64,000 nt of DNA from Cyanidioschyzon merolae (taxonomy: Eukaryota): the NCBI GenBank assembly GCA_000091205.1, contig AP006501.2; one strand, written 5' to 3'. The notes beneath the pieces are model-generated. The model ran no database searches. It had not been told where the DNA came from and saw nothing but the letters and a program-made list of their open reading frames with translations. Each line of letters starts with the position of its first letter. Position 1 is the stretch's first letter. This document shows positions 1 to 56,913 of this stretch, piece after piece. A program made the translations under genes and the position numbers.

Positions 1-3000
1 CCCGTGAGCCTGAGCCTGCTCCTGCTCCTCCGGTTCCGGCTGAGGCCGCGGACGCCGTCCCAGACGTGGCTGTACGCGAGTTCCTCGAATCGCTTGAGGC
101 GCCCGCAGCTGTGCTCTTCGTCGCCCGACTCGACGACGACGACGACGACACTGTGGCACTGTCAGCCGTGATACCGGGTCTCACGTTCCGCACTACGCTC
201 ATAGTAACCTCAGTGAGCGCTTCATCAATGCCGTACGCTGATAGCGTTTGCTGCGGATTATCGAGTACCTGCCCACGGTACATCAGCATCTGATTCGTGA
301 CCGGGATCCCGGCGCTCTTCTCCACCTCATTCTGGATCTCGTAGACAGAAGTGTGTACTCCCTTCTTAGGTACGACACTTATCTTCTTGCCGTTAAAGCA
401 ACGAACTTGGAGCGTAAGCATCCGAGGAGACTCGATACCGACTGCACCTCAACCCGGGATGAAGCGACTCGAACGACGCCGGCTGCTCGTGAGGCGCACT
501 ACGCTGGCCGGGCGCAGCAGCGGGGCGTGCGCAGCAGCGGGGCGTGCGCAAAGCGCTTGGGCATCGACGCACAGATGCATATTACGGCCCTAATTGTTCT
601 ATTTTATTCTGGATCTTCCAGGGCCCTGCATGCGCGACGTGCCGCAGCAGGCGGCATTCCATGGTGTGCAGGCTCAAGATGACGCTGACCTGCTCATGAT
701 GCAGTTTTATTACGGGGGATCCCTGGATCGAACGGGGTATTTGGTAGATACGTCGTTGCTTTGCGCAGATGGTCAGCAGAAGGAACAATGCTCTACGACC
801 ATAGAGTGTACATCGATATATATCCACTTAGAGACGCTTTCCAGTGTTTTTTGACCGGCAGAATGCTCCGGGCTTCAGTTTCCCCCTGTATACTACGAGC
901 GTGAGACGCTTCCCCGCAACGTTAAATCGCTTCAGTTCCTCGGTTCTCTTCTTTGGCGCTAGACATCGTCTTATATTCATGGCAGCGTTAACGTCTCGGA
1001 TCACGAACCCCACGCGTGCATTGCCTCTGGTGGAACTCATCAATGGAGGCATTCCTCGAACTCGTACCTTCTGTGCCAATACGGTCTCGTCGTTGGCGTG
1101 TCGGGCAAGCACCTTTTCTCGTCTACCTCTCCTCTTTCTCTTCTACTACTTTACCACTTGTTCTTTTTCGCTTGATGGTCGACGAGAGAGGATTTTGTTT
1201 CGTTTCTTTTTCAGGCAGCCGGAGACACCAGATCCCAAGATCCCCTACTTCCGTATCCATCCCTTTGCCCTGAATTTTCATTTTTGAAAATGGACGCACT
1301 TTGAACGTATCTGCTACAAACCGCGAAGACGCATTTGATCACACTCACCCTGGGGTGCAACACCATTGAAGCGAAACACTACAGTGGGTGCATCCATGAT
1401 GGCACACCAGACCGCCTGCTTCCACCGGGCACCATGCAAAAGTACCACGACCATCAGTCAGACTTTCCTCTCCGAATCATGGATAGCTCCAGAGCTACGT
1501 TGGACGTCGAGCCTGGTGTTGGCTGGAATCGCGGCGCTCAGCCAACGCTCAGCTGCAGACACCGCACAGAGACGGGACGGCTCTGTGGCATCCGCATGGG
1601 CGTCGGCTCGAGACCTGTACATAGTGGCGGTCCCGAACGCAAATTATAGGACGCTGTGAGATCCTGGTGAAGCATCGAGCAGTGTTTGTCGCAGAAGCCG
1701 CTACACGCGCACCTATATACCTATGAAGACTCATGTCGGTGTGGATGGAACGTGTCCACTCACTGGACACGTACATTCCGGAGGTTCAATCTCTTCCAAC
1801 TGATATCAAGATCAGCCTCTTGGGAGCTACTTCTGCGACTGCTTCCTGTTCCCCATTTGTATATCTGGATTTCAAAACGCCGGCTTCTCGCGTCCTTTTA
1901 GATCCATTCTCAGCAGTCGAAGGATTTTGGTAGCAGCGTCCAAGCCACGGCTTCGCTGTTGTCCTTGTTTTTCGCGCCCAGGCAGGAGATGCGATGTATG
2001 CTTCGGTGCACCGTTTGCAGAGCCGTCAACGCACAAGGGTCAGGTATTCCCATGAATGTCCCATGCGCATCATACTTTCGAAGGCTGCTCTGTGGCGCCT
2101 GTGCGCTTGCTTCATCGCTCACTTCATGCTTTTGACGGGTACAGAAAGATCGCCTCGATGCCCTCCACCGGTTCCGCGCCCGATGCAGCAGCGCTCGATA
2201 ACATGCGTCAGCAGGGCGAAACGCCTCGGTGCACCGCTGACAGCGACAGACGCAAGCACTGGCTCTTCCATTCGATTGCGAATGTCTGGATGGCGATACG
2301 GTCCGTGAGGAAACAGGTACCCGAGACAAAGTCCATACTGGAGGAAAAGTTCCGCAATTTCGACTCAACTACGCTCCCTTCGCACCCACACGTGACCTAT
2401 TGACCACCGGAGGCGATCGCTACGATGACTGCAATCCGGGTCCTTGGCCGTTTTCCATGCAAGCTGAGGAGCGCGGAGCCGCTGGGAGCGTGCTCCCCTG
2501 TGAGCGAGGTATCATGCTGCAGTCGACTTTGGTATCGTGGATGGCTACGACGAGATGCGGATTCGTGTTTCGGAAGACATCGATGATCGGACGCGAGCGG
2601 TTCCGTGAGCTGCCGCCTCTGACAGCCTGTGGTCGACTTGTCACTGCGCGACGTCGCGATGCGCTCGATGTGCACCCAGCGGCGCGAGTCGCTGCGTCCA
2701 CGCGGTGCCTTGGCGGGGAACCATCGAACACGTGAAGCGGGCGTGATTGGAACATGCTCCGCATTCGCACAAGAGCGTCACGGAGGCTTGGAGGTATGCA
2801 CGGGATACTGATATCGGTTGCTTTATGAACCGTACGCGGGAGGCGTCACGAGTCGCGTTGATTACGGTGACGTGCCGATGCCAGCGGGAGAGCGTCGAAC
2901 ACGTCACTCTGGACACTCGATCGAGAATCCCTGAACCTCGTATGAAACCGTTGGCTCTGACAACTGCCATCGGCATGTCGAGGCTATGTGTTTCTGAAAA

Positions 3001-3454
3001 CCCAAGTCCGAAACAACATCCGAATACGTGAACCGTACGATCATCAGTACCATGGTGTCCTACCACGTTCTCGCCGGCGTCTAGACGCGCGCCCGTGCAG
3101 TGTTGAGTCTCGGATGCGCGGGCGTGTGCAGTTCCATCTGAATCATGAACAAGTCTGAACTTTCATAGATAATCTTGAACGGAGCGTTTCTTCATCCGGC
3201 ATGCGATGCGATGCGCTGCGCCGAGCCCCAACCAGAAACGCCTCCAGCTCCCGTTGATCCGCGAAACACTCGTACTCGCGGCTCGCCGCGCGAACAGCCA
3301 TTCATGGTGTGCCGCAGAATTCGCAACAGCTCCTTGACGTCCTGTATCCAAAACGTCTGGAGCGCTAGCACGGCGCTTGCGTACAAGTCTCTAGCAAGGC
3401 AGTTGCACCTGCAACCGCGCAAAGCCTTCAACCGCGAATGGTAACACCTGAAGC

Positions 3455-3972: not shown

Positions 3973-4011
<39 letters not shown>

Positions 4012-10354: not shown

Positions 10355-10389
<35 letters not shown>

Positions 10390-12595: not shown

Positions 12596-12634
<39 letters not shown>

Positions 12635-19489: not shown

Positions 19490-20179
19490 GCAGCTCACGG
19501 CGACGCGGGGCGATACGCGTTGTGCTCGGGTCGCGCAGGTGCAGAGCGCCTTGACGGGCGTCTGTGTCATGCTGCAACGCTGCGCGGGTTCGTCCATGTT
19601 CATGGAGGGTTTCGCGATCTTTATAGCACCGTGGCGGGTCTCGCTTGGATGCTGTGAAATAGCGAATCATGTGATGCCATGATCGTTCGGCGATCGCACA
19701 GGAGACTCGTTCGCGGCATACGAGGATGGCGCTCCCGCCTCGCTGGATTGCTGCAACGTACCAAGCCCATGTGTTGTTTTTATTTGATCACCAACATGAG
19801 ACGAGGACGCACATGGTGATGAAGGAAGCTTGAATACAGTTCTTGGATCCCATGCGCAGGTCGTAGTGCATCTCTTGTCTAGAGCATCGGGTGTGATGCA
19901 GCAAGCGAGTTTGAATGATGGATTCCGGGGGAATGTGGACAACCTGCAGCACTGCATGCGGACCGCTTACAAACAGTTGCTTGACGAGATGCGTCAAAGC
20001 GAGAGCACCCGACAGAGCCGTGCTCGAGTAACAGGAGACGCAATCCCTGATGGCACCTTGAATCAACCGTTTTTAGGTGATTCTCCCCGGACCATCCGTT
20101 TTACATTTCGGTTTCTCGTCATCCGCTTTTGGGGAGAGGTTTTGTCTCCTTTGTTCCATGATTTGCTCTCCTTCTCGTT

Positions 20180-21192
20180 TATTCGGCAGGGTAGCATACA
20201 TGTAACCGCTCTCATCCATATCCGTTTTCTCGCACCCAGACGCACTGGGTGGCCTGTGGAACTAAACCTCCATCTTCTCATGTATATATCTACGGTTTCT
20301 CAAGTATCTTCCCGTCAACCTCTCTAAAGGCGGGGCAGCATACATGGAACCGCTATCATCCATATCCGTTTTCTCGCACCCAGACGCACTGGGTGGCCTG
20401 TGGAACTAAACCTCCATCTTCTCATGTATATATCTACGGTTTCTCAAGTATCTTCCCGTCAACCTCTCTAAAGGCGGGGCAGCATACATGGAACCGCTAT
20501 CATCCATACCCGTTTTCTCGCACCCAGACGCACTGGGTGGCCTGTGGAACTAAACCTCCATCTTCTCATGTATATATCTACGGTTTCTCAAGTATCTTCC
20601 CGTCAACCTCTCCGAAGGCGGGGCAGCATACATGGAACCGCTATCATCCATATCCGTTTTCTCGCACCCAGACGCACTGGGTGGCCTGTGGAACTAAACC
20701 TCCATCTTCTCATGTATATATCTACGGTTTCTCAAGTATCTTCCCGTCAACCTCTCCGAAGGCGGGGCAGCATACATGGAACCGCTATCATCCATATCCG
20801 TTTTCTGGCACCCAGACGCACTGGGTGGCCTGTGGAACTAAACCTCCATCTTCTCATGTATATATCTACGGTTTCTCAAGTATCTTCCCGTCAACCTCTC
20901 CGAAGGCGGGGCAGCATACATGTAACCGCTATCATCCATATCCGTTTTCTCGCACCCAGACGCACTGGGTGGCCTGTGGAACTAAACCTCCATCTTCTCA
21001 TGTATATATCTACGGTTTCTCAAGTATCTTCCCGTCAACCTCTCCGAAGGCGGGGCAGCATACATGGAACCGCTATCATCCATACCCGTTTTCTGGCACC
21101 CAGACGCACTGGGTGGCCTGTGGAACTAAACCTCCATCTTCTCATGTATATATCTACGGTTTCTCAAGTATCTTCCCGTCAACCTCTCCGAA
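20180..21192. repeat. Tandem array (minisatellite-like) of a 144-bp unit in about 7 copies at high identity.
   Basis: The unit cgcacccagacgcactgggtggcctgtggaactaaacc...catatccgttttct recurs at 20231, 20375, 20519, 20663, 20807, 20951 and 21095, an exact 144-bp period. Because the period is a multiple of 3, it produces artefactual read-through ORFs in two frames (20249..21208 and 20544..21269). Confidence 0.9.
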
Positions 21193-22264
21193 GCGCGGAC
21201 GCCCATAGACCGAAGCTTGCCTCGACGTTCTCTCCCGTGCTCGATCAGAGCCGCAACATATCCGCATAGTGTTGGTGCAGGTTGATGACGAGTTGTCAAA
21301 GGACAATGTCATGGCCGCAACCGATGTGTCTATGGACCAACGAGCATGAGAATGGCGTTCAACAACAGACAAGACGTCTTCGTCTGGATTGAGCCAGGCA
21401 GAACAGGAGTGCACGAAAAGCATCCCAATGCTGATATCTGATGAATGCCCGGGGACCGCTTTGGGGTAATAGAAAGCGACGCTGCCTAGGAGTTGGACAA
21501 AAGAATGCGGTATGAAGATCCCGAGAACTGATTTGACAAAGGATGATCTGATCCATGCGTCTGTGCATTTGGCGATTTGTAGACGATAACCCATTTTCTA
21601 ACAGCAGCCAGGTCTAATGTTATCGTCCTTTCCGCGTTTCTCCTCTTCATCAGCCGCGGTTGATAGCTCTCTGAGCCCCAGTATACAGGTCGGCAATGTC
21701 TCCCGAGTTTATTCTAATCAAGCGAGGCGAGTATCCGGCCGGCATGAGGTACGCGTTCGTGCTCCAGAGCGACATCGACGGTGTGTTGTTCAACGCGCGT
21801 AAGTCTTCCACAAAAGCGCTCTCCTTCCGTTATCCATCCGTGTCTCTTCATCACAGTTCGTCTCTAGGGAAATGGAACTTCACATCCTGCAGATTCTCTG
21901 GTTGTTGTTCTTAAAGAACGAATCGAATGAAATTCATTGACGAGTTGACAGACGTTTATATAGAATTTGATATGTTCGGTTTTGGCAACGCGGCGTTTAA
22001 GATACGGACGAGGTTCAGGTTGGTTCATGCACTTGCTGGCCTCAGAGTGGCCGACTTGTATCGCTGTGCCCGTTCCGCGCAAGCGAACAATCATTGCCAA
22101 CCGTCCTTCCAGCGCCTTTGTCCAATCTACCATACACATTTCTGTTATAATGTATCTGCTAGACAAACAAACAAAAACAACAAGCCCATGTCTCTGAAAG
22201 TGTTCCAGCATTCACTGTTCTCTATTCAACCCTGAAATACGCGCAACAGCCAATGTCCGAGGTC

Positions 22265-23694: not shown

Positions 23695-24200
23695 ATTAGT
23701 GGCGCTGGCGCACCGAGGCGCGTTGCCATGTGACGTATCATTTATGTACATAAACATACATCTATAGACCAATTATTCCTATCCCTCGCAACCGCCGTCT
23801 TGCGATCGTATCGATGATAGAGGTGGCAGTCAGTAGCGCACGGAGGCGCGTTGCCATGTGACGTATCATTTATGTACATAAAAATACATTTATGTACCAA
23901 TCATTCCTATCCCTCGCACCCGCCGCGTTGCCATCGTATCGATGATAGAGGTGGCAGTCAGTAGCGCACGGAGGCGCGTTGCAATGTGACGTATCATTTA
24001 TGTACATAAAAATACATTTATGTACCAATCATTCCTATTCCTCGCATCCGCCGTCTTGCGATCGTATCGATGATAGAGGTGGCAGTCAGTAGCGCACGGA
24101 GGCGCGTTGCAATGTGACGTATCATTTATGTACATAAAAATACATTTATGTACCAATCATTCCTATTCCTCGCATCCGTCGCGTTGCCATCGTATCGATG
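23695..24200. repeat. Tandem array of a 128-bp unit in about 4 copies. Each unit carries a perfect 14-bp palindrome (TTTATGTACATAAA) and a TGACGT motif.
   Basis: The motif cgttgccatgtgacgtatcatttatgtacataaa recurs at 23721, 23849, 23977 and 24105, an exact 128-bp period. The array lies about 0.6 kb upstream (5') of the minus-strand fatty-acid-hydroxylase gene. Confidence 0.85.
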
Positions 24201-24839
24201 ATGCGCCCGTCACCCCGATGCCAGATGCAGAGGAAACGAATTCCATGTACGGAACTCGGGTGTATGCGCTATCGTTGGAGTCGCTGTTCCCGGCATCATC
24301 GACATCTGCCTTTGGAGGCGTTTTTCTGGCGCTGTTTCCTTTGCGCATCTCATGTATCTGGCTTTACATACGAAAGTCTCTGGTTTCCTTCAAGTTCTGC
24401 AATCAGAGGTCAATGGATGCTGGAGCCAGCGTTCGAGTCCCGATTTCGCAGCTTCCCGCTATTGCAGACGCATTTCGTTCACAGCATGTAGTTACGATCT
24501 ACACTGCTCTTGCCATTGTCATCTTGTTGGTATTCAGCTTGGGTGCGCTCTATCTATGGGTAACAAGCAGCTGTGGCCTAACATTCGCAGGTAAACGCCA
24601 AACATCTGTTTCCGAGCACCGTCCTGTGATTCGCGAGCGCTAGCTTTATCGCTCGGCGCATGTCTTGGCTGGTACGCAAATCGCTCCTCAATATCCTTCT
24701 TCGAGTTCGCGTCCAGTGCTGTACCCTACGATCACGGGCTTCTTCTGTGCAAAGCCGTTGGCGAGTATTCTGTCCGTCGCTTTCACACACGAATGCTATT
24801 CGATTCGACACAGAATTGGTGAATTTTCATCTTGTCCAT

Positions 24840-25470
24840 TATGCAACAAGTACCGAAAGGAAGATCCGAACTGGAGAACGAGTCATAATTTTCGATTCGT
24901 CTCCAGATCCACCGTGCGAAGCGGAAATCCACACGCTACTGGTAGCGATCGCTGCGATCACGCAAACCGTTCTCTTCGATCCTTTTCCAGGCAAGTAGAA
25001 GCGAAGGAAGCGTCTGGCAGCATATCCCGCGACAAGTATCATACTGCTGTGAAATCTGGTTCCATCGACGGCCACTGACATGGGAGAATTTATCTTTCGG
25101 AAGGAATCCAGTATTTGCGTTTCATATGTTCACTGATCATTCGATATGGACTTGTGAACAAGTCGTCAGTACATGACGGTAGAGACTTTTCCTCCTCCAT
25201 ACGATTGCGCGAATAGCTGGGCCGTCTGCGACTCGCCTGAAAACAGAGCGATCGAAAGCCTGAACCAACCATGATTCTCGCACAGCACACGTACGGACAG
25301 CGCAAGCGTCGAGGCTTGTACGTATGCATTGGATCATGACATTGGATCGTTTACGAAACCCAGTTCGAGGGCGTCGCGCATCATCTTGATTCTGGTCAAG
25401 TAACGAAACCCAGCGGCAACGCATCGATAAAGCCACACCCCGCAACCAAAACCGAGCATCCTGAAACGAG
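24840..25470 (+). repeat. Dispersed repeat copy A (about 600 bp, diverged), homologous to 38030..38640.
   Basis: Aligned blocks include caagtaccgaaaggaagatccgaactggagaacgagtc...gcgatcgctgcgatcacgc...gtaacgaaacccagcggcaacgcatcgataaagccac, which match caagtaccggaaggaaaccctaggctggagaacgagtc...gcgatcgctgcgatgactc...gtaacgagtcccggcggcaacgcgtcgaagcagccac in the second copy. Confidence 0.6.
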
Positions 25471-25599
25471 GTCCACATCCCTGGTCCCTTCGAGCTGCAC
25501 TTCGGGTCACCAGACGCTACATCGAAAAAACTTTGAAAAATAAACAAAAAGCTGGAACAGTGCAAACACTTCATTGCTCCATTTTCATGCGTCCGAGTC

Positions 25600-28500
25600 C
25601 TAGAATACCTGCAATACCTCATCAATCGTACCGAATATCGCTTCGAAAAGCGCTTCCTGAGGCATGCCGATTCTGCGCGCGATCTCCTTCCGACGCGGTG
25701 TATCCAGAGACCCGTACAGCTGCAACACATCGCCATCGAGGATAGAGCGCTTCGGTTTCCGAAGACCCGCCGCCACCGTCAAGGAACGCATCACTCGCCA
25801 GGAACGGGCGTACAAACACCATTTGCGAAGCTCCGGCTCCAGCATGAGATCTTGGGCGGCGAGCTCGAGTTTCTTCGCCACGCCGCGTAACAGTGGAGAA
25901 ACCATGGTAATCATCCCGTCAACGGTGCCCAGCAAGATCACATGCGTATTCCAGAGTGACGACGGCTCGTTTGGAGGCGGCGTCTCAGCACTCGGATCAT
26001 CAATGCGTACCCGACGCACCGCGTTCGGCCGCGACCCAACATGGAAACCGGCCTCAAAGGTCATACGCGTTCCACCGGCTGACTCGGGATCCACTGGACT
26101 CGGAATACTCAACTCAATGATGTTGCCAAGCATGTCCGCTGAGAGTACATTCGCCTTGGTACCGTGCATCAACCATTCCGATGCAACCAGTTCACGTTGC
26201 GCCTCATCGCGACAGAGGAAATTCTGCGAAACGTTGCGAGACCTCCAGAAGAGAAACGAAACACCATACCGCATATCCGAAGCGAGAATATACTGTTTCA
26301 ACGTGCCAACATGCGAAAAGAACAAATTAATACCCGGATAAAACGATATACAGGACATTTCGTCCTCGATCAGTTTGTAGACTTCGAGACGCGGTCCAGC
26401 GCTGCAGCACACGAAGCCGCCCTTGACCGGCGCAACCGCCGAAACTGCTCCTTTGACTTCGGTTGCGGCAAGCGTCTGCATCTGGTAGAGGGTTCGCTGG
26501 TGCTGATGGTGCTGGCGGCCCTCTTGTCGACTGATTTCAAAAACAAGCAGGCGACCGCGAATGCTGGTGTCCTCACCCCGCAGGAAGCACGTCCCAACCA
26601 CGAGCACGTCTCGCTCTGTGAAACGTGGTGCCTCGTCGTCGCCGGTGCGCTGAAAATGCCGGATTCTGGTTGCACACATCGCCAGCCCGACCTCGGTCTG
26701 TTCGAGGTCGTAACGCGCCAGCACCTCCAGAGAGTTTCGTGCAAGCAATACGACCGCATGCTGGTCGATCAGCAGCGGCAGATCCCGCTCTCTACCCGAA
26801 TCGAATGGGCGAAGTTTCTGCTCTTCGAAAGCCGCCAGCGCTTTCGGTGGATCATCTGCGACATCACCCGCTACGGACTCGTCGACGCTACGTGCGGTCG
26901 TTGACGGCCAAGGTGTCTCTGCGGTACCGTTAACGCCTCCTGGTGTGGTCATTGCGGATGCACCATTCGCGACGTCGTCCATATCCATGGGCTCCGCCGT
27001 CGACGAGTCGCCACGGGCCCGTATCCCTGCAGTATCACCGCGAGACGCTGGTACTCGACGAGCGTCCGCGTTCAGTAGCAGCGGCTGCGGAGGCTGCATC
27101 CCTGATGAGCGCGTGACTCGGACAGCAGACTCCTCGGCTTCTTGCAGCCCTGGCTCCTGCTGTTGTTCCTGTTGTTCCTGTTGTTGTTGTTGTTTGCGTC
27201 GTGCATGACGTAGCATTGACTCATAGCGATTCCCCTCTAGCAAATACTTGACAGCTGCTTCGGTTGCGGGCACCATACGTCCCACGATCGCTAGAATCGT
27301 GTCCGTAGAGGGATCGTGGAGAAGCCGCTCTACGTATTCGGGCTGCGGCCAGGCGTGCTTCTGCACGAGAAAGTTGCCAACGGCTTGCGCTCGGGCGAGG
27401 ACTGGCCACTGCCCAATACGGACGGTACCGTCCGTCGCCACCGACACAAAACCTTGCGAACATACACCCTCGTGGTGCAGATCCGCGAGCGCAAGCAGCC
27501 CAGGGCCTCGCACCGGGTGGATGGTCGGGTATCCGGTATCTCCGAGCACCAGAATAACCCGTTGACCGATGATGCTGATGCCAGACTTGCCCTGGATACG
27601 CCGGAACGGCATCAGACGAATGGATACGGAACGTCGACTGCTTGCTTTGCTGTCTCGTTCAGGTGCGGTTGTTCCTATTGACGTCGACAGACTCATCGGC
27701 GGCGCATTCGCGGAGACACCGACACTCGGAGTCAACACCGTGCTCAAGGCATCGCTACCGACGCGTGCAAAGCAGAGGATCCCCCGGTTCACAACGTAGC
27801 CGCGATAGAGCACCACCTCACCCGAGGCAAGCACAGCCGCCAGAACTGGACATGTGCGCTCGCCGATGTCGACTAGACAAACGTCGAGCACTTTGCCTTG
27901 TCGGGTGCGTCTCGGGCCAAGCTCTCGGCCGTTCGCAGGCATAGAGCCGAGGCCTTTCGGTGCGTCCTCGCCGGTTGTGGCAGTACGCTTGCGAGGCATA
28001 GACGACGACGACGACGACGACAAAGAAGTCAAACCGGCGCCCTGGCTGGGCGTCGTGGTCCGAGTCCCGCTCTCGAGTGCAGACACCTCGAGCGTTGCTT
28101 CACCGGGCATGCGATGGAGCATGCCCGTCGTACCACCCCTGGGTGATGTCGGCGGAGTCGTCGTTATCGTTGTCGTTGCCGCCGAGGACTCTGCTTCAGC
28201 GTCTGCTTCTGCTGAGGCAGCATCTGTGAAGGACGCAGCTTGTCGCGATCGATCATCCAAAACCTGGTGGACGCCCAGAAAGAAACGCTTGCATCGCAGC
28301 AACAACAAGTTCTTTTCGCTGCCAAGCGCATACAAATACAGGGCACCATCCACGGAAACAACTGCAAGCATGCTGTGCAACGCGGGAACGACAGGCTCCT
28401 CGGGTTGCGAGCCTCGCGCAGTCGTCTCGGGGGTACCGTTGCTGGCTCCCTCGGGAGTCGCATCTGAAACCGCGTCGCTCAGTGCGAGCGCTCCATATAG

Positions 28501-34059: not shown

Positions 34060-34300
34060 GAGAGACCCTGTCCGTAAACATATACATCCAAAAAACTGTA
34101 AATAGGGGAACGCGTATTCCATCAGAACGAGCCTACGTCCGTAAACATAACCATCCAAGAATGTATGAATAGGAGCAAACGTATTCCGTCAGAACGAGCC
34201 TATGTCCGTAAACATAACCATCCAAAAAACTGTAAATAGGGGAACGCGTATCCCGTCAGTCAGAGACCCTGTCCATAAGCACAACCATCCAGGAACGGAT
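34060..34300. repeat. Tandem repeat of a 67-bp unit in about 3.5 copies, located in the 5' flank of the biotin carboxylase gene.
   Basis: tccgtaaaca(t/c)a...catccaa...gtaaataggggaacgcgtattcc...agaacgagcctac recurs at 34071, 34138 and 34205, with a degenerate copy at about 34262. Confidence 0.75.
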
Positions 34301-34619
34301 GGATCGATGCACGAGCGCGTCGACGCGATCGAACGGCGCGCAGCCTTCGTCGAGCACCGCGGCTCGCACGCAGCGGCGACGATGCGTGCGCATGCGCGGC
34401 AATGCCGCGAGACGCTTCCTCGAAAAACGCGAGAGAGACAGAGAGCCAAAGCGCTGGCTGGAGAGGAACCTCGTGCACCAGGTGTGTCCGCAACGGTTCT
34501 TGGGTAGAGACTTGGCTCAAGACGAACTTGAAGCCGATACAAAAAACGTGAATCTTGGTTTCTCGGACGAGAGTTAAGACCTCCCGGAGCAAACTCGTTG
34601 CACATTCTTATCGCCAGGC

Positions 34620-36272: not shown

Positions 36273-38029
36273 AGCTTTGGAATAGCCCGCCGGATCGCCG
36301 ACAGTACAGAATGCCACGTCGTCACCAGCGACGCAACAGCAATCACGTCACGAACACGCATCGACAGGTCAAGCGACTCGCGGAAGCGGCTCGTCGCTAT
36401 CGACGTTGTGGTTAACTGGCGCTCTGTACGTGCAATTTGCTGCTGCAGCTGCTGTACGGGTGGCTTCGTATTCCCGGATACGTGCGTATCCGCTGCAGAT
36501 GGTAGCGCGCGGATGCGGAGCAGGAATCACTGTCGGAGGTGCTGCAGTTTTAGAGGTAGGGACCATGAATCTAAACACAGTTCACCAAGTATGTTATTGG
36601 TGTCGGCATCCAAGAAAGCGGACACTCCTCTGCTCCAGGAAGATACTGCGTGGAATGCGAGCATCGGGAGATGCGCTCTAGTCCGGTTCGCAGTCATAAC
36701 AAAAACGGGCCGCTGTTCGAAAATGGTGCTGGTACGCGTGCTGCCGCCGTCGTGCTCATGGACTGCTGAAGCGGGCGGAAGGCCCGATTTCAACGAGTCA
36801 AGCACTTTGTCGCGCATATCTTCAAGCGAACCTTTTTGGCGTATACATGTGGGTTGCGGGTACTCGGTCTCAGACGCAGCATTGCGCAACTGCATGGGCA
36901 ACGACTTCGAGCTGCGGCTGGCGTTGGTACCTGGCTGCCTCCGAGGTACGCGTTCGCTCGCCAGGTGACTCAGGCGCCGCGTTCATCCCTATGAGCAGCG
37001 TCGAGAATCTCCATCTCAATAGGCTCGGTGTTGTGCACGTACGATCGAGGTGTCATCAAAATGGCCAAGCAGCTGGTAGAAAGGTCTCAAAGAAGCATTG
37101 CGAGTCATCGTGTCACCAGGTACGCCATGCGAAAGGCGCACGCTGTGCGGGACGTGTCCCCCGCAGCGTTGTTCAGAAGCGCCCTGCGGGAGCGTTCGCC
37201 TGCTCTGAGGTGCACACACCCCAGTGTGCAGTACCTCGACGATCTCGATCGAGAGTTTCCATTTAGATTGATCATACACCATCCAGTTGCACCGTATGCG
37301 CATACACGGATATCAGCTAGCGAATAGAATTCGTCACTGCGGCGCGAGACTTTGGCTACTAGCTAGTCTGGGGTGCAGACGCACTGCCCGCATCGAACGC
37401 AGCTCAGGTGGCGTCTAATCCGTGTCAAACTAGAACTGAACAGACCGTCCGACACGGGCGTATGTCGTAAAAACTAGGTCTTTCCTCAGTATCATCAACA
37501 AGAGCCTTTGCGGAACGTTCTATGACTGCTTTCTCTCCCTCCGTCTCATCTCCGACTTTAAATACACAAGTCTCTCCTTGCACCCCGGATTTGTTCGCAG
37601 CAGTCGATGGATGTTGATGACAGCGTTAAAGTCGCGATTTCAATGCTTCCAGCTAGTGTCGACGAATGCGATGCATTAGCGGGGGCTGCAATCGACGCAT
37701 CGCTTGCTATGTCCATCTGATTTTTATGCAGCCTCGTTGTGCCTGTCGCAGCGCTGGCCTTTGAATCCAGCCAGATGTTCCCAAATGTCCAGCATTTCTT
37801 CTCCTCCATGCACCGTTCCGCGGAATGTGAACACCTGCTTCATCGTTCGGTACAAGCCATAAATGGGTACAGAAGTATCCCTTCGATGCCGTGCTCCATT
37901 TCCACATCCGTAGCTACGCCCCATGACCATGGGCTTCCTCTCTGTGCGCTGATCCGCGCGTTCTCTGTCATCGGCATTCGCAAGCGCATGGCGCTCCGCT
38001 CGATACGAGCTTTGTAGAACGCGATGTTG

Positions 38030-38640
38030 TCCATGGTGAATCAAGTACCGGAAGGAAACCCTAGGCTGGAGAACGAGTCGAGAACTGTCGAACTGTCTAC
38101 GCTTCACACGAAGCGATCGCTGCGATGACTCAAGTCGGTGTCGAAGACCCGTATCCAAGCGAACCGAAGAGACCGGACCTACCCATGGAAGCATATCCCG
38201 CCGAAGGCACCATGCTGCTATCGAGCTCCTTTTCGGTCCGATAACCATAAAAAGAGGAAAATTTTTGCTTCGAACGGGATCGACTAGGTGACGTGAAGCG
38301 CCCAGTGCGCGTTCGGCATGTGCTTGGGAACACGACGCCAAGAGACATTCTCGAGTGTATTTCCAGGTGCGTCCAGCGACGCGAACTTCTTCGTCCATGA
38401 GTTGCCATGAAACAGAAAGATCGAAAAATTCAAGAATTCCTTATTTGATCATCTTATATGTAATGCGAGGCGATGCCTGGAACCTTGTGCGTTTGCGTTC
38501 GCTGGTGATATCGGTGATTTCACAAACCTTTGTTCAGTGGCGTCGCGAACCACGTACGTTCCGTTGAGGTAACGAGTCCCGGCGGCAACGCGTCGAAGCA
38601 GCCACTCCGCTAACACGCCAATGAACCCCAAGACAAAACA
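38030..38640 (+). repeat. Dispersed repeat copy B (homologous to 24840..25470).
   Basis: See copy A. Identity is roughly 70-75% in several co-linear blocks. This copy lies about 0.5 kb downstream of the minus-strand BFN nuclease gene. Confidence 0.6.
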
Positions 38641-39168
38641 TGAATCCGTAAGCCCTTATTGATGCTCTTCGAGTCGCGAGACAGTACACATATAGACTTG
38701 CAGAAAAATGAACGAAGAGCAGGAACAGAGCGAGACGTTCAGTGTCCTATTTTGTATCTGATACGGATAAACACGCGGGCTCGGCGCGCGCACTGCCTAC
38801 CGTTCGTCGCGGGGCCGCGAGTCGTTGAAACGAACCAGCGATCCACAAAAGCGAGATAGGTTGTGGGTTTTTCTCCCAGGGTCTCGACTCGTTGATACGA
38901 ACCCGGGATCCTCGACAGCGCGACGGTTTGCGTGCTGTTGCGTCTGCGCGTCCAGCGGTTGCGCGAAGCGCGAGCTGCACATATCCGCTCGCGGCGCATC
39001 CATTGCCAGAATCCATATCTTATCGAAAAGGACGCATTTTTACTGTTCATTTCGGATAAGCTGCATTCGTCAACATCGGTTCATCCGTCACTATCCCGTT
39101 CGTCGATCATGCTTCCAACCCAGTGATCGCCACCTTTCGAAACACCGCTCCGTCCATGATAGCACAAT

Positions 39169-49519: not shown

Positions 49520-50191
49520 TCAGAGGCGCTTGAGACTCCGACGCTTCTCGCGCATGCTTGCGCTCATGGCGCCTTGGTTTCCGAGGCCAAAACCACTGGG
49601 ACTCGAGTGGTGCTTCGAACCGGGTGTTGTTCCGGGAGTCTTGCGTTCGCTGGCAGGCCAGGATTTGGGTGCCATGTCCTCGCGTGTTGCAGCGGCACCG
49701 CCGCCACCAGTCCGCGGGGAGGCATGGACTTCCGTCCAGATTCGAGCTCGCGCTGCGAATGCTGCATAGTCCTCGAGTAAGAGTCGACCGGCTTCCTCAT
49801 TCAAGGCGCTCTCTGGATTCGGATCAATGAGCAGACATCGTATTACCGTGAGGACGTGCCGAATCCCATAGCTGCTCTGCCAATCGCGTTTCAGAGTATT
49901 GACGCAGATATCCCCCTGTTCGCTAACGTTGGGATGAAAGATTTTCGTCAAAAAGTAACCCCGAGGCGGCTGGTATGGGTACTCTCCAGAGAGTACGAGC
50001 TTGACTCGAAAGGAACCTGCTTCATATGGAGTATCCTCCGGACCGGTTATGACAGCATGGAGCTCGGTCAAAACGTCTTGACCGCTGTCGTTCAACAGCT
50101 CGACGCCGTGCACCGGTTCATCCCTCAAGCTCTGTACTTCCCGAAAGAGTCTCGTGATGACGCCTGGGGGTAGGTTCTCGCACAACGACAT
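49520..50191 (-). CDS. UBE2S: Ubiquitin-conjugating enzyme E2, UBE2S/UBC22-type (223 aa), with a basic C-terminal tail.
   Basis: [64 protein letters not shown] is almost colinear with UBE2S ([64 protein letters not shown]). The HPN motif and the catalytic Cys are present. Confidence 0.88.
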   Translation of the reverse strand: [223 protein letters not shown]

Positions 50192-50704
50192 GTTGATTTT
50201 TCAAGTACAGTGAAATCGATACGCGTTCCGAGCGTTGCAGCACCAGACGTTTCCCAGACGGAACGACACAATTCACGACCTGGTCGCACAGGCAGCAGAC
50301 TCGAACACACACACACGCACAGCAGGTACACGACGTCTCGCTGAGAGCCGCTATTGAATGCAAGCCCAGGTACCAAGCAGACCTGGTACACGGTGCCGTG
50401 CGCTTGCGGTCGTTGACTGCAAACCGCAACAGCCGTGCCCAAGACCGTTGGCGAACACCCAAGTCCTTGCGTAAACGAACGTGCTCTGCTTGCCGCACGT
50501 CAGTTGCGTAAGACCCTGTTGTAGACGACTGCCGACGGGATCGAGCACCCTGCGATCGTTGATGCGATTTTCGTAACCGCCGTTGCGAATCGAGCGTGTG
50601 GACGGGGCTTGCACTTGTGGGAAGTACGCTTGCCGTTTACAAGTAGAGGAATAGGATCGGAGGTTTGGATCTTGAATTTTAGGAAACAGACGGCAATTTT
50701 GTGT

Positions 50705-52078
50705 CCTCTACCCGTGTTCGTACAAAATGGAACGGGTGCGCGAACACAGGGGTGCACGCTAGAGCCTTGGTCTCTAGCTAGTGGTATCGACACCAGCGTC
50801 TGTGGCAACGCTGTGTGCGTGCTTCCTTTTCTGTTCACTTTCATGCGGTTGTATATTCTCCAGTGTACCCTTTTTTTGCAGATCCGTTCATAGCAGTCGA
50901 GAGACACTGCTAGTACTCTGAAAGTCCCAATATCGCTGGTCTCGGATGCCGTTCTCGCACCCTAGGCATAGAATGTCGTTGCGATCTAGACGCTGCATGC
51001 GAGAGTCATCGCCTTCGCATACAGACAGAGTGTACCACGCTCAGCGGTGACACGTCGCGGTACTCAGGGATTCCCGTATACCCACAATGCATCCCGTTCC
51101 GAAGCGCCGCCCTGTGCCGCGTGAGCACTTCCTTCGCCGTTCCGTGCATGTTGTTGACTGGTAAAGAAGGCTTCTGTCGATGCCTTCCTCCATTCCTGTG
51201 CCCGGTGACATGCACGATGATCACGGGCTCCATCTGGACGATTCCCGCGGCGAGTACGCTACCCGCTGGGCACGCAAGCGCACGCTGCTCCATGCGGTAG
51301 CGCAGCCATGGAATGCAGTATTGCCCGTGATGAAACAAGCACCTGAATGGAACTCCAGAATCGGGATCCAGGCGAGAAATCCAGGACGGTCCACGCTGCC
51401 TTCGTATGCGGCCGTGACGCGCTCATTAGTGGAACCGGTTGCGGCGATGACTGCAGCCCTCGTCCAGGACGCTATTCCATGCAAGCGGAATGCACAGAAG
51501 CTTCTGGGACCATACTTCGTGATGGGCAATGCTTGTGTCGGATCTCGGTTCGACGATAGCCACGGAGAGCGGCGGCTTTGTTTTTTCCAAATGGAACAGG
51601 CTTCCTGACGTAAGCGGTTCCATGAACTCGCCGCATGAGCCTGTGAATACGTCGCCAGCGGACATCGTCGCGTATTTTGTTTCCTCGTCAATCCAGAGAT
51701 CCGCATTGCTGCGTCCACGAGTTGCCTGAAACAGACACATCGAACACCTTGAAGAATGCGTGATTGACGCAGAGGCCAGGCAAGCAATCGAGAGGAATCG
51801 AGGCGACTGCACATGCGTGGATGATGGTATTGTTTTAATGATGCGAAACCCGTGATCGACGGCGCTGGAACTCATCATGATTCCGGTGGTGAAATCGAAT
51901 TGCAGCGTCAGGGAATCGAAGGAGCCTCCACGAAAACACGACCGAAAATATAAAATTCCGCATGCATCCCCAAGCTCTTGTTGCTCTACCTTGAACGTTG
52001 ATGCAGCCCAAGTAAAAAAGATCGAAAAATATCGAAAGATAGACGCAAAGCGTCTAATCCAATCGTCGATTTTACACC
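50705..52078. repeat. Left arm of a large inverted repeat (about 1.37 kb) whose partner is 54587..55959.
   Basis: The reverse complement matches the right arm almost base-for-base. Identical ORF translations appear on opposite strands: 51221..51814(-) equals 54850..55443(+), and 51877..52092(+) equals 54584..54787(-). Only a few mismatches and single-base indels were seen. Confidence 0.9.
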
Positions 52079-53954
52079 AACATAGCTTCTAGCGAGCGCG
52101 TTCCTCATACCAACTGAGCACACACATAATCGCCCGCAAGGACGACGACACCGGTATGATCAGTAAAGCGATAAGCATTCTAGGACCATAGAGTCTATAT
52201 ATACAATCACTTACAGACGGCTCCTGGGCTTTTTCTGACCGGCCGAGTACTATCGGGTTCAGTTTCTCCCTGTACGCTTCGATCCTGAGAGTCTGACCCA
52301 TAAAGTTGGATCGCCTCAGCTCCTCGTGTCTCGTCTCCAGCGCCGCACATCGTCTGATACTGGTGGCCGCGTTGAACTCTCGGTTTTGCGAACGCTTTGC
52401 ATTTATTGACGCTACTTGAATGTACGTTTGGAACGATTGCCCGCACTCGTGCCCTCTGTGTCACCACAGTCTCGTCATTGTTCCGTCGGCCAAACACCTT
52501 TTCTCGTCTATCTTCCTATTCTGCTTCTGCTTCACATCCCCTTCTTCGCTAGCTGGTCGACGAGATGATGATATTTTCGATTTTTTGTCGAACCCGGCGA
52601 CACAGGACCTCAAGGATCCTCGACTTTCATATCCATACGGATCCCTTAGATTTTTTATTTCTTCAAAATGAGTACATTTATTGGTGCCTTTAGGCGAGTA
52701 TATTCCAGGAATATAAAGCACTTGCATAAGAAACACGTAATGTACCCCAGTGTCACCATGTGCTGGACGCTTCAGCGATTCGCTCAAGGGAGCTATCATT
52801 ACGTTTCACCATACAAAACACCCCTTCTATGAGGTCTAAACACGCAGAGCGCGGAAGAATGAAACGCAGCAGTATACCGCTAGAATCCGAAGAAAGCTAG
52901 AACGCAAGGACAATGGTGAAATACTACATTGTCCAATAGGAGGGCGTCGCCAGACCTCAGGAGAAGGTCTTCAATGATTCGACAAAGTGGTTGGTGCTGT
53001 TGGATGAGCCTTCTCGACGAGCGAAACTGAGGCCGCCAAATGAGTCTACCACGCCTAGCACGGATGATGTCGTCGTTTTCTTCAATTTTACGATCTTACA
53101 TACAACGAGCTCCCTCTCCCTGAATACCCAAACGCTCTACGACCGTTTCACCCGAAGCAAGTCTCATCGACTGAAAACACAAACCTACGTCCCTGTGCTT
53201 CATACCGATCGCAACGTTCCAAGAACGCTGTCACTGCTATTTAGGTGGAATATAATCGTAGGTGAAATTGGATTTTTGGGATTGTATCCTAGTGCTTGTC
53301 GAACTACACGAACAAGCTGTTCAGAGACAGAGACGCCCTTAGTGGCTACCATCGTGACTTTCGCTTTCTGTACGGTGGTCAACAGGTCGTTCTCTACCAC
53401 TGGCCGCTAGCAGTCTTTGAGAATAACCGTTTTTGGCACGGAGCACTGATACTTCTCTCTTTCAATGTCCCTCAACCATAAGAGTACTTTGGTATGACTG
53501 ACCTTATGAAAGAATGCAATTCTCCTTGCACTTTTCAGTAAATCACGTATCCTACATTGAATTCGTCCACGATTTAAACGGTACACTGCATCGTGCTTTC
53601 AATTTCCTGCTCGATGCACTGGAAAAAAAGCATTCGATGACAGGCAGCAGTTGTGGAGCACATCTGAGCTGAATGTGAAGTTAAGATACGAAGCATGCAC
53701 CGCGCGTGCGAACATTTGAAGATGGCGCTCGTGGCTACCCGCCTCGAGTACAGGTCAGGTCATCGCTCAGGCCGTTGCACACTGGCTACGCGCTTGACGT
53801 GCGGGCAAAGAACTGGAAACCGAGGTTCACTGGTGAGTGCACAACTTTCGTCGTTCGATTAAAAGGAACTTGAGAAGCGCGCACGTGACGACCGGTTTGG
53901 CGTCGCCTTCGGAGACGCTTCACCAGGGCGATATCTGCTCCTAGATGGTTATCG

Positions 53955-54557
53955 GTGATGACTCTTTCGGGAGCGTCGTCGTCTAAGGAAGCCCGCTTGC
54001 GGAGCCTTCTGCTCAGCTATGAAGACGCTGAACGCAAGCGAGGAAACCCGGTTCCCTGGCTGAAAACGGAGGAGTTGCGGTCACTCCTGGAGACTGCCGG
54101 CGGGGAGCGGCGCGTCATTCTTATTGACGTTCGTGAAGAGCCGGAGCGTCGGGTCTCTGTCCTTAGAGGCGCGCTCTCGCCTGCACAGATAGAAGGGCTC
54201 TTGAATACCCCAACGACGAGTGAGAACAGTGCCGCGCGGAACAACCTCTCCACGGATACGATGCTTCTGGTTCCGTACTGCACTGCCGGCGTCCGCAGCG
54301 CAGCATACGCCAAATCCCTAATGGCGCAGTACCCTCAATGGGCCGCATGCGTTCGGAACGGAGAGGGTATTATCCGTGCAACTTACGTGATTCCCGAATA
54401 TATTGTGGATCCTGTATCTGGGAAACCCACGAGCAGCGTGCACGCTTATGGGGCAAAATGGGATCTCGCGGCGCCATCGTTCGAAACCGTCCTCTTTTCG
54501 CAGTGGGAGCGACTAGCGCGCACCCTGCGCCCGCCGAGTGGTCGTCTGCATCTGTGA
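53955..54557 (+). CDS. Rhodanese-like (sulfurtransferase / Cdc25-type CX5R) domain protein of 200 aa, lying inside the spacer between the inverted-repeat arms.
   Basis: RVILIDVREEPERRVSVLRGAL..........LLVPYCTAGVRSAAYAKSLM gives the rhodanese layout, with the active-site loop C-T-A-G-V-R-S (Cys-X5-Arg). Confidence 0.55.
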   Translation: MMTLSGASSSKEARLRSLLLSYEDAERKRGNPVPWLKTEELRSLLETAGGERRVILIDVREEPERRVSVLRGALSPAQIEGLLNTPTTSENSAARNNLSTDTMLLVPYCTAGVRSAAYAKSLMAQYPQWAACVRNGEGIIRATYVIPEYIVDPVSGKPTSSVHAYGAKWDLAAPSFETVLFSQWERLARTLRPPSGRLHL

Positions 54558-54586
54558 CGGCACCAGTACCTTAGGGCCCGTTATCA

Positions 54587-55959
54587 GGTGAAAATCGACG
54601 ATTGGATTAGACGCTTTGCGTCTATCTTTCGATATTTTTCGATCTTTTTTACTTGGGCTGCATCAACGTTCAAGGTAGAGCAACAAGAGCTTGGGGATGC
54701 ATGCGGAATTTTATATTTTCGGTCGTGTTTTCGTGGAGGCTCCTTCGATTCCCTGACGCTGCAATTCGATTTCACCACCGGAATCATGATGAGTTCCAGC
54801 GCCGTCGATCACGGGTTTCGCATCATTAAAACAATACCATCATCCACGCATGTGCAGTCGCCTCGATTCCTCTCGATTGCTTGCCTGGCCTCTGCGTCAA
54901 TCACGCATTCTTCAAGGTGTTCGATGTGTCTGTTTCAGGCAACTCGTGGACGCAGCAATGCGGATCTCTGGATTGACGAGGAAACAAAATACGCGACGAT
55001 GTCCGCTGGCGACGTATTCACAGGCTCATGCGGCGAGTTCATGGAACCGCTTACGTCAGGAAGCCTGTTCCATTTGGAAAAAACAAAGCCGCCGCTCTCC
55101 GTGGCTATCGTCGAACCGAGATCCGACACAAGCATTGCCCATCACGAAGTATGGTCCCAGAAGCTTCTGTGCATTCCGCTTGCATGGAATAGCGTCCTGG
55201 ACGAGGGCTGCAGTCATCGCCGCAACCGGTTCCACTAATGAGCGCGTCACGGCCGCATACGAAGGCAGCGTGGACCGTCCTGGATTTCTCGCCTGGATCC
55301 CGATTCTGGAGTTCCATTCAGGTGCTTGTTTCATCACGGGCAATACTGCATTCCATGGCTGCGCTACCGCATGGAGCAGCGTGCGCTTGCGTGCCCAGCA
55401 GATAGCGTACTCGCCGCGGGAATCGTCCAGAAGGAGCCCGTGATCATCGTGCATGTCACCGGGCACAGGAACGGAGGAAGGCATCGACAGAAGCCTTCTT
55501 TACCAGTCAACAACATGCACGGAACGGCGAAGGAAGTGCTCACGCGGCACAGGGCGGCGCTTCGGAACGGGATGCATTGTGGGTATACGGGAATCCCTGA
55601 GTACCGCGACGTGTCACCGCTGAGCGTGGTACACTCTGTCTGTATGCGAAGGCGATGACTCTCGCATGCAGCGTCTAGATCGCAACGACATTCTATGCCT
55701 AGGGTGCGAGAACGGCATCCGAAACCAGCGATATTGGGACTTTCAGAGTACTAGCAGTGTCTCTCGACTGCTATGAACGGATCTGCAAAAAAAAGGTACA
55801 CTGGAGAATATACAACCGCATGAAAGTGAACAGAAAAGGAAGCACGCACACAGCGTTGCCACAGACGCTGGTGTCGATACCACTAGCTAGAGACCAAGGC
55901 TCTAGCGTGCACCCCTGTGTTCGCGCACCCGTTCCATTTGGTACGAACACGGGTAGAGG
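54587..55959. repeat. Right arm of the inverted repeat; partner is 50705..52078.
   Basis: See the left arm. Identity ends at gggtagagg (55951-55959) on this side and at cctctaccc (50705-50713) on the other. Confidence 0.9.
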
Positions 55960-56307
55960 CTCAAGTGTACGAAAAATTCGCACAGCTCCTGTGCCGAAGA
56001 TTATATATATACCTAAAAATACATTTTAATTCCAATTTATACAGGTTCTGCAAGTCGACCTCGTCGACCACACGGCACCATCGGCGCGCGCACTGACGAA
56101 CACGTGGCTCAACTGCAGCGTCCGCATGTCGGCCGCATCTGCACAACGCCGCTGCATTTCAAAACGAGCCAGCAGCGCTCCTGGCATGGGACGTCTGCAT
56201 CGCCGCTTCGTTGCGACGTGGCAACGCCTGCGCGAACCCGAGAACGGGACGCGAGGTGCTCACGCGTGCGCCGCGAGCGCTCCTCTGTGAACAGCTTACC
56301 TCGTTGA

Positions 56308-56913
56308 GTGATCTTTTGCGTCTTCTTGACTTGTACAATGGATACCTCGCTCGTTTTCAGTAGCTCAGCTGACGTTTTCGGTGTGGACGTTAGGTACACG
56401 TACAAAGTTGATGACAAAACGAACTTTGTACTGCGTGGACTAGCGAACAAAGAAAAGCCTAAACCTTTCGATCACCACTCGGGAGAGTATATCCGGGGTT
56501 GCCTGGTGCATCACTTCCGCACCGTTCCCGACTGGCCAGTGGATGTGAAGCTAATTGCCTGGGCTGCGCAGGGTAAGAACCAAGACCGCTGGGGCGTTAA
56601 AGCCGTCGCTATGAAAACGCTCGCCGTTGATGAAGATACAAAAGCAGAAGCGCGTTTGGTGTTTTCAAATCGCCCCCTAGCGGAGAACCGCAATAGTCTG
56701 CTCTATGGAACGCTGAAACGTACCTTCCGTATTGCCGACGATGAATGGGTGGGCGGCCTCCAGTGTCGCACGGACGGACGTTGCGTTCTCGGGGTTCGGA
56801 ACGGAATGCTGAGCGTCCAAAAAGTGCTTTCCCAGGGTGGACCGACTGGTGAGCCTGGCGAGTGGCGGGCCAAGTACTCTCTCAGTGGTAATGCACCTAG
56901 GCTCTTCTTCTAA
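56308..56913 (+). CDS. Hypothetical protein (201 aa) with no recognisable domain.
   Basis: A stand-alone ORF in an otherwise gene-free stretch, with no homology that I can recognise. It may be spurious in GC-rich DNA. Confidence 0.25.
   Translation: MIFCVFLTCTMDTSLVFSSSADVFGVDVRYTYKVDDKTNFVLRGLANKEKPKPFDHHSGEYIRGCLVHHFRTVPDWPVDVKLIAWAAQGKNQDRWGVKAVAMKTLAVDEDTKAEARLVFSNRPLAENRNSLLYGTLKRTFRIADDEWVGGLQCRTDGRCVLGVRNGMLSVQKVLSQGGPTGEPGEWRAKYSLSGNAPRLFF

Follow-up and report, generated by a model that had tools for sequence, protein, structure and literature searches.

A near-perfect inverted repeat around a rhodanese-like gene of Cyanidioschyzon merolae and its probable origin from two decayed DDE transposon copies

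Eight class II elements, weakly similar to bacterial transposases, were described in Cyanidioschyzon merolae 10D, a red alga, by Nozaki et al. 2007 (PMC1955436), and mariner elements that combine a 5′ transposase with a 3′ Fanzor1 gene are known (PMC3627910). In composite bacterial transposons (IS-gene-IS, e.g. Tn10 and Tn5) two inverted insertion-element copies bracket a cellular gene, and in the flip-flop inverted repeats of plastid genomes, the yeast 2-micron plasmid and human Y palindromes near-identical arms enclose a unique spacer. A locus that resembles each of these in part was analyzed here on chromosome 19 of C. merolae 10D, in a stretch of 64,000 nucleotides (contig AP006501.2; hereafter the window). 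Between the genes CMS304C and CMS306C, two arms of about 1.37 kb that are nearly perfect reverse complements of each other enclose a 2.5-kb spacer with a rhodanese-like gene. The explanation favored here, with a probability of about 0.6, is that two full-length, dead transposon copies were added in opposite orientations around a resident gene and then exchanged sequence with each other. In this reading the structure is a by-product of transposon history and now a local recombination substrate, with no demonstrated function.

The arms and their transposon family

The left arm (50705-52078) and the right arm read in reverse (55959-54587) were aligned by blastn over 1374 nt at 99.4% identity, with seven mismatches (50724, 50870, 50941, 51192, 51232, 51262 and 51264) and one 1-nt indel (52074). 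This agrees with a preliminary description of the sequence, which had reported a near-perfect inverted repeat of about 1.37 kb with few differences. Overlapping open reading frames (ORFs) of 197, 150 or 216, and 110 aa, directed from the spacer outward, were present in both arms as described there, and so was the rhodanese-like coding sequence inside the spacer near the right arm, its stop codon ending 29 nt short of that arm. In a global alignment that included the flanks, identity fell to noise within 1-2 nt on both sides, so that the arm boundaries are sharp. The pair was the sole long repeat of the inverted-arm kind found by a repeat search of the window, and the only sub-repeat in each arm was a 10-nt micro-repeat (x2.7). 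A 1.37-kb inverted pair of this kind cannot have arisen by chance.

Sensitive self-comparison of the window revealed diverged paralogues of the arm core. Three old copies (A, B and C) lie in the window and a fourth (D) on a related contig (L065). Pairwise identity among these four copies was 52-58%, with few indels, and the three in the window match the arms at about 53-58%. The family is about 80% identical to its own consensus. Homology of the left arm to the family ran from about 52054 to about 50711, with background level beyond. A profile hidden Markov model (HMM) built from the old copies A-D only aligned to the left arm at 52039-50695 (envelope 52059-50690) and to the right arm at 54625-55954. 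Family homology ends within about 10-40 nt of the arm ends; each arm is thus a complete family member and not an arbitrary segment. Copies A, B, C and the left arm share one orientation and are spaced 13-22 kb apart within the 64 kb; a further copy (T, see below) follows further along in this orientation, and the reverse orientation is that of copy D and of the right arm. The density of the family in the window exceeds that suggested by 'eight class II elements' for the whole genome.

Searches for coding potential gave different results for single copies and for the reconstructed consensus. Pfam searches with single arm ORFs and with single frame-corrected copies gave no match, and the transposase was seen only in the consensus. 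The four-copy consensus matched DDE_3 (E=6e-4) and the IS630 transposase (E=2.5e-7). With five copies the Pfam DDE_3 match reached E=7.9e-9 (36 bits, over the gathering cut-off of 28.6) and the NCBIfam IS630 transposase match E=9e-12. A metagenomic protein of 261 aa carrying Pfam DDE_3 (P0100) was 38% identical to the consensus over 264 aa (E=4.8e-38 and 2e-50); the match begins at the consensus methionine of 'MYSLDIR...' and spans the motifs 'VAIDET', 'MDNIAFHK' and 'YSP'. When a profile of the four-copy alignment was searched against a set of 5.8 billion proteins, the arm's own ORF was the sole match, and a profile search of PDB sequences gave none. No codon periodicity was detected in the paralogue alignment. 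The idea that the arms are non-coding, drawn from this absence, was dropped; neutral decay after inactivation fits better.

Like Tc1/mariner-IS630 (ITm) elements, the consensus has an N-terminal helix-turn-helix region, 'DE(T/S)xF' with the first Asp, 'DN..H' with the second Asp, and 'YSP..NP', and the element length of about 1.35 kb lies in their normal range. Unlike them, every examined C. merolae copy is decayed, with no clear terminal inverted repeats (TIRs) or TA duplications left, and the C-terminal part of the transposase is seemingly replaced by a TnpB/Fanzor-like zinc-ribbon segment. Judged from these sequence features, the family is a Tc1/mariner-IS630-type DDE transposon, old and inactive. 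The eight class II elements of Nozaki et al. probably include elements of this kind.

In the arm copies 'VAIDET' has become VAIVEP and 'MDNIAFHK' has become TGNTAFHG, the first Asp being Val and the second Gly. The corrected frame contains three stops or frameshifts, and neither an intact ORF nor a catalytic triad is left. With the frame broken and both recognizable catalytic Asp residues lost, the arm copies are dead. Of the two options that the preliminary description gave for the frame-shifted ORFs, pseudogene or non-coding unit, the pseudogene thus proved right, and it is a decayed DDE transposase.

Downstream of the transposase, in the same frame, the consensus reads '...TCHRC..(22)..LCTEC...RDFNAATNI', that is, the pattern CxxC..CxxC..RDxNAAxNI. 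This tail matched Pfam PF07282 (Cas12f1-like_TNB) with E=1.9e-4, under the gathering cut-off. The zinc-ribbon motif is best preserved in copies D and C and is decayed in the arms. The tail comprises the C-terminal zinc ribbon and 'RDFNAATNI' only, and no RuvC-I/II region could be separated from the DDE region. Like the Fanzor1-bearing mariner elements (PMC3627910), the C. merolae family unites a 5′ mariner-like transposase and a 3′ TnpB-like protein in one element; unlike them, it has only the last 70-90 aa or so of the TnpB-like protein, directly after a truncated transposase. Such an arrangement suggests an internal deletion, and the 1.37-kb family looks like a non-autonomous, internally deleted derivative of an element with transposase and TnpB/Fanzor genes. 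The Fanzor1 element CMe-1A, with which the family was compared by description only, is reported as unclassified and without a transposase.

A second repeat in the spacer was found by blastn to be homologous to window positions 792-1292. An ORF in the latter paralogue (828-1112, minus strand) contains '...RDVNAAMNIRR...', in which we take 'RDVNAAMNI' to be the RuvC-III motif of TnpB/Fanzor proteins. A Pfam search of both copies of this repeat (52179-52670 and 792-1292) gave no match. On the strength of this motif only, the repeat is possibly a fragment of CMe-1A.

The element ends were searched for transposition signatures. Neither the ends of the arms nor those of the 1203-bp core shared with copy T showed significant TIRs, the scores lying in the range of shuffled sequences. 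An imperfect inverted motif of 11 nt, CAAAATGGAAC, occurs at 50723-50733 and 52064-52074, which is 18 nt and 4 nt inside the arm ends; it is too short for significance. Copies B, C, D and T also have it at their 5′ ends. No TA target-site duplication (TSD) was found at the arms, the left arm being flanked by ..GT and AA.. and the right arm by ..AG and TG..; TA dinucleotides occur only beside the internal motif (50721-22 and 52073-74) and have no evidential value. Nor is there a TSD around the 5.2-kb unit as a whole, as its outer flanks, TTTTGTGT on the left and CTCAAGTG on the right, share no direct repeat. Retroposition and Helitron origins were considered and rejected upon inspection of the arm boundaries, where neither poly(A) tails nor TC...CTRR ends were seen.

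A resident gene, a third copy and two spacer orientations

The rhodanese-like protein has a conserved 'CTAGVRS' active-site-like loop, and its orthologues in Cyanidiococcus yangmingshanensis and in another cyanidiophyte are 57% and 51% identical. The gene order in Cyanidiococcus (L011) and in this other cyanidiophyte (L007) is E2 ubiquitin-conjugating enzyme (minus strand), rhodanese, CMS306C homologue and copper transporter (Ctr) (all plus strand). The intergenic distances at these syntenic loci, 1.1-1.4 kb and 0.35-0.6 kb, leave no room for the arms, and arm-like DNA was detected at neither locus, whether by blastn or with the family HMM. The spacing in 10D without the arms is comparable to that at the sister loci. 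The same gene order without arms in two other genera indicates that the arms were added around a resident gene and that the gene was not captured. All contigs carrying the rhodanese gene place it at this locus.

Four proteins of the window are identical to C. merolae 10D BAM82893-BAM82896. These exact matches rule out a trypanosomatid source, which GC content and the long ORFs without introns might have suggested. The exact rhodanese-like product is absent from the NCBI protein set of C. merolae 10D, and the accessions of its neighbors are consecutive (BAM82894 for CMS304C, BAM82895 for CMS306C), the locus number CMS305 thus having no coding sequence there. The gene was probably missed in the C. 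merolae reference annotation; in Cyanidiococcus it is annotated as KAF6003270.1. In a natural variant (P0016, 426 aa, four contigs, window 53958-55238) the rhodanese stop codon is read as Trp, and after 10 further codons the ORF passes into the 216-aa ORF of the arm, so that rhodanese and transposon relic form one fusion ORF.

A third near-identical copy, T, was found on contig Ga0504771_0000460 (33,115 bp; L065 and L032). One end of this contig lies 328 nt inside the right arm, and the other end holds copy T, which adjoins the gene for the Ins(1,3,4)P3 kinase BAM82905 and lies 31.5 kb downstream. Copy T was read in natural strains about 99% identical to 10D, the T locus of 10D itself lying outside the window. 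The interior of T (arm 50850-52052, 1203 bp; HMM columns about 50-1240) is about 99% (96-100%) identical to the arms. Its ends are not: the last 125 nt or so are 47-54% identical, and for the first 30 nt or so identity is about 60% (by eye). The old-copy HMM nevertheless fits both ends in register, the outer flank alone giving E=1.5e-9, and the T junction recurs in three other contigs (L012, L040 and L066). In-register replacement of the interior is characteristic of ectopic gene conversion or of gap repair from a template.

The distribution of the differences between the arms also bears on conversion. All seven arm-arm substitutions fall in the outer 560 bp while the inner 810 bp are identical, for which the probability under a uniform distribution is (560/1374)^7 = 0.002. 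This suggests that sequence was exchanged more recently over the inner 810 bp. With the clustered substitutions and the replaced interior of T, the earlier attribution of arm near-identity to recent duplication or gene conversion was borne out as recent copying and/or conversion. Uniqueness of the arms in the genome, which the preliminary description had named among its refuting observations, does not hold, since closely related strains have at least one further near-identical partial copy at a distance of 31 kb.

Look-ups of the 10D Ins(1,3,4)P3-kinase protein (P0038) and of the 142-aa ORF of the right arm returned nothing on record. An exact scan of metagenome contigs for an arm 31-mer gave two loci, a procedure unsuited to copy counting. 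One of the contigs with the T junction, L012, has at 352-3455 an arm 98.5% identical to 10D next to spacer and rhodanese gene of about 93% identity, and its far side is 99.4% identical to L065. This contig is probably a chimera joined via the repeat; if it is not, conservation is far higher in the arm than around it.

Assemblies contain junctions for either orientation of the spacer. The 10D orientation is present in JGI contig L001, which is collinear with window positions 54921-39513 at 99.4% identity and spans E2 flank, left arm and spacer together with 335 nt of the right arm. In 17 other JGI contigs (L013-L019 and L042-L051) and two Logan contigs (L053 and L054), the rhodanese end of the spacer leads through a complete arm into the E2 flank. 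The junction in these 19 contigs corresponds to a spacer flipped relative to 10D, and such a combination is what recombination between inverted arms predicts. No contig joins the rhodanese end to the CMS306C flank, L012 entering the flank of T instead. Like flip-flop inverted repeats, the locus has near-identical arms, a unique spacer and, in assemblies, both apparent spacer orientations; its arms are also more alike than their age predicts, with an exchange tract in a third copy. Unlike those systems, the locus has no known dedicated recombinase, its arms are relics of transposons rather than functional genes, and the inversion is read from short-read contigs. The odds that the spacer carries a real inversion polymorphism are roughly even.

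In the favored reading, the ancestral element would have carried coding sequence for a Tc1/mariner-IS630-type DDE transposase and, after it, for a C-terminal module of the TnpB/Fanzor type. Both copies would have been added, one on each side of the resident rhodanese-like gene, after C. merolae split from Cyanidiococcus. Because arm identity reaches both ends of family homology, one arm appears to have been copied from the other as a whole element, and mobilization in trans or element-precise duplication is the likely route. Later ectopic gene conversion among the copies is suggested by the clustered arm differences and by a third copy with only its interior overwritten. The 1.37-kb inverted arms could then recombine to flip the 2.5-kb spacer.

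Several points weigh against this reading. Convincing TIRs or TA duplications are lacking at the arms, and transposition of whole elements is suggested by the coincidence of boundaries only. No intact close transposase able to mobilize the arms was found, the database matches being the arm ORF and P0100 (38%) only. The TnpB-like assignment, made from sequence, combines a sub-threshold Pfam match with a motif recognized by eye. Copy T is known from natural strains and not from the 10D sequence, and conversion between copies that are only about 50% identical, as the ends of T are, would be mechanistically unusual. The flipped contigs are short-read assemblies and may be systematic graph artefacts, since short reads cannot phase across the 810-bp stretch without arm differences. 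The reciprocal junction, consisting of the CMS306C flank, an arm and the other spacer end, occurs in no contig.

Alternative explanations

Two independent, recent insertions of a still mobilizable non-autonomous element, with transposase supplied in trans, would explain arm identity by youth alone, with neither conversion nor inversion. Local hopping is typical of Tc1/mariner elements, and at least three near-identical copies within 37 kb would fit it. The arms are clean additions relative to the sister genera, and the identity between them continues on either side up to the limits of family homology. However, the arm ends show neither TA duplications nor clear TIRs, and no transposase that is both intact and closely related was found. 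What copy T has in common with the arms is its interior alone, in register and between diverged ends, a pattern that insertion cannot yield, and the arm differences are clustered rather than uniform (P=0.002). The inverted repeat is moreover present in every natural strain sampled (0.6-1% diverged), and is therefore at least as old as the 0.5% arm divergence. This explanation is rather unlikely.

A segmental inverted duplication without any transposon activity, by staggered-break inversion or replication template switch, could have copied a segment that happened to hold an old relic. It would account for the lack of TIRs and TSDs and for the 18 nt and 4 nt or so that the arms share beyond their only TIR-like motif, and an inversion by staggered breaks would have as its primary product the flipped arrangement found in many contigs. 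Against it, both breakpoints must coincide by chance, within a few tens of nt, with the ends of the old element. The rhodanese orientation of 10D is ancestral, and a second inversion back would be required. We regard such an origin as improbable.

The non-coding part of the spacer (52079-53957) has 48.5% GC and is the only 1.9-kb stretch under 49% GC in the window, against 56% for the window as a whole, both strands of which carry long ORFs without introns. For the centromeres of C. merolae a length of 2-3 kb and a GC content of 48.4% have been reported (bioRxiv 10.1101/096016, citing Kanesaki et al. 2015), and the spacer core, the lowest-GC 1.9 kb of the window, matches these values. Like the regional centromeres of Schizosaccharomyces pombe (cnt/imr) and Candida tropicalis, the locus has a low-GC core (48.5% against 56%) between 1.37-kb inverted repeats, and it might be read as the centromere of chromosome 19, built fission-yeast-like from a core plus inverted repeats. 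Unlike those centromeres, the spacer also contains a conserved gene. Many similar low-GC stretches must occur on a chromosome of 1.28 Mb, and the published accounts mention no repeats at C. merolae centromeres and speak of 'no other apparent pattern'. A centromere here is very doubtful. If it were one, a red alga would have a centromere of the core-plus-inverted-repeat type, and gene conversion would keep its repeats homogeneous, as it does at the centromeres of yeast.

The leading idea of the preliminary description, a foldback or TIR-type mobile element with a captured gene, corresponds to a composite or foldback transposon that has taken up the rhodanese gene and is mobile as a 5.2-kb unit. 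It has the formal architecture in its favor, with two inverted transposon copies bracketing a gene as in the composite transposons of bacteria. Unlike in those, the arms are non-functional (with a broken ORF and loss of both recognizable catalytic Asp residues), the gene has its ancestral place at the locus, and nothing indicates that the unit moves. The proposal is contradicted by synteny, the gene standing in its ancestral position, without arms, in two other genera. No TIRs or TSDs bound the 5.2-kb unit, the contigs carrying the gene all map to this locus, and the unit was seen nowhere else. A foldback element is further disfavored because the arms are decayed coding sequence and do not have the short tandem sub-repeats typical of such elements. 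Capture and movement as a unit are therefore most improbable.

A hairpin locus yielding small RNAs or double-stranded RNA with a regulatory role had also been suggested. A transcript across both arms would form a stem of about 1.37 kb, but the arms are recognizable transposon debris. Scans for Rfam families, covering the window and 50000-56500 at E<=1, gave no match and the tRNA scan was likewise empty, which excludes the arms as a known RNA gene. Since C. merolae is reported to be without RNA-interference machinery (PMC11376382), and since there was no Rfam match, such a role has scarcely any likelihood. The analysis brought up nothing in support of divergent transcription from a palindromic duplication.

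Assemblers are known to fail at palindromes. In addition to L001, the 10D structure was recovered in ENA contig L052, which covers 54811-50725 and thereby the inner 225 nt of the right arm, the full spacer and nearly the full left arm. The spacer ORF was found on 13 further contigs of 2-5 kb from additional samples, and those shown are essentially spacer only, the form that a collapsed inverted repeat takes in short-read assembly. Contigs entering from the E2 side and from the CMS306C side stop 140-410 nt into the arms. Such breaks inside the arms, together with the spacer-only contigs, are the expected behavior of a true two-copy inverted repeat. In metagenome contig L051 a palindromic join within the arm (1-103 and 100-1644, corresponding to 50885-50783 and then 54415-55959) is an assembler hairpin artefact and calls for caution with contigs crossing the inverted repeat. 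A chimeric or collapsed palindrome in the reference is nevertheless hardly credible, as L051 does contain such a junction but the inner and outer junctions were recovered independently from many samples by three assembly pipelines, and eight positions differ between the arms, which are thus not the mirror of one read set.

Features of the window and meaning for C. merolae

Coordinates of the inverted repeat, the transposon family and neighboring genes (window positions unless a contig is named)
Feature	Position	Strand	Remark
Left arm	50705..52078	-	Full-length copy of the ~1.37-kb transposon family; sense strand runs away from spacer
Right arm	54587..55959	+	Same element in opposite orientation; sense strand +
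Spacer between arms	52079..54586		2508 bp
Decayed DDE transposase coding region, left arm (predicted)	51118..52006	-	Right-arm equivalent ~54658-55546 (+)
TnpB/Fanzor-type zinc-ribbon and RuvC-III remnant, left arm (putative)	50902..51103	-	Right-arm equivalent ~55561-55762 (+)
Old family copy A	1709..3086	-	52-54% identical to other copies
Old family copy B	24193..25605	-	Self-comparison and HMM
Old family copy C	37412..38755	-	Self-comparison and HMM
Old family copy D	L065 9263-10099	Opposite to A-C	On related contig
Copy T	L065 85-1442	As left arm, inverted to right arm	Full-length family copy
Resident rhodanese-like gene	53958..54557	+	199 aa; weak Pfam Rhodanese match, E=0.0057
E2 ubiquitin-conjugating enzyme gene, CMS304C (BAM82894.1)	49520..50191	-	Start codon 514 bp from left arm
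CMS306C (BAM82895.1)	56338..56913	+	Start codon 379 bp from right arm
Second-repeat fragment in spacer	52179..52670		Homologous to window 792-1292, 69.6% identity over 507 nt (blastn)

In the literature CMS304C is the E2 enzyme and CMS307C the copper transporter CmCOPT1. Several metagenome contigs (loci L024, L026-L028 and L030) contain a head-to-tail junction of position 60599 to position 56089, and others begin at 56089 or end at 60599. In natural populations, then, the 4.5-kb unit with CMS306C and CmCOPT1 (CMS307C) exists as a tandem duplicate or in circular form, which may represent copper-transporter amplification. Elsewhere in the window, tandem repeats lie at 20041-21204 (144 bp x7), 23708-24202 (128 bp x3) and 34062-34311 (67 bp x3), the first of them within a 319-aa ORF in a 5-kb region of lowered GC (49-52%). 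A 3729-aa ORF (3455-14644, plus strand) is rich in CAG/CAGCAC trinucleotide runs.

C. merolae is used as a model for its small, finished and nearly repeat-free genome. These findings describe ordinary biology and leave the general understanding of genome biology unchanged. The arms, together with copy T 31 kb away, would form a local hot spot of gene conversion and possibly also of 2.5-kb and 31-kb inversions, which is relevant to engineering by homologous recombination near CMS304C-CMS307C, to read mapping and to strain comparison. A conserved rhodanese-like gene is seemingly absent from the reference protein set. The mosaic copy T offers a clean natural case of in-register interior replacement between highly diverged transposon copies. 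A poorly classified old repeat family of C. merolae can now be placed, by the sequence of its consensus, in the Tc1/mariner-IS630 superfamily, with a Fanzor-like tail.

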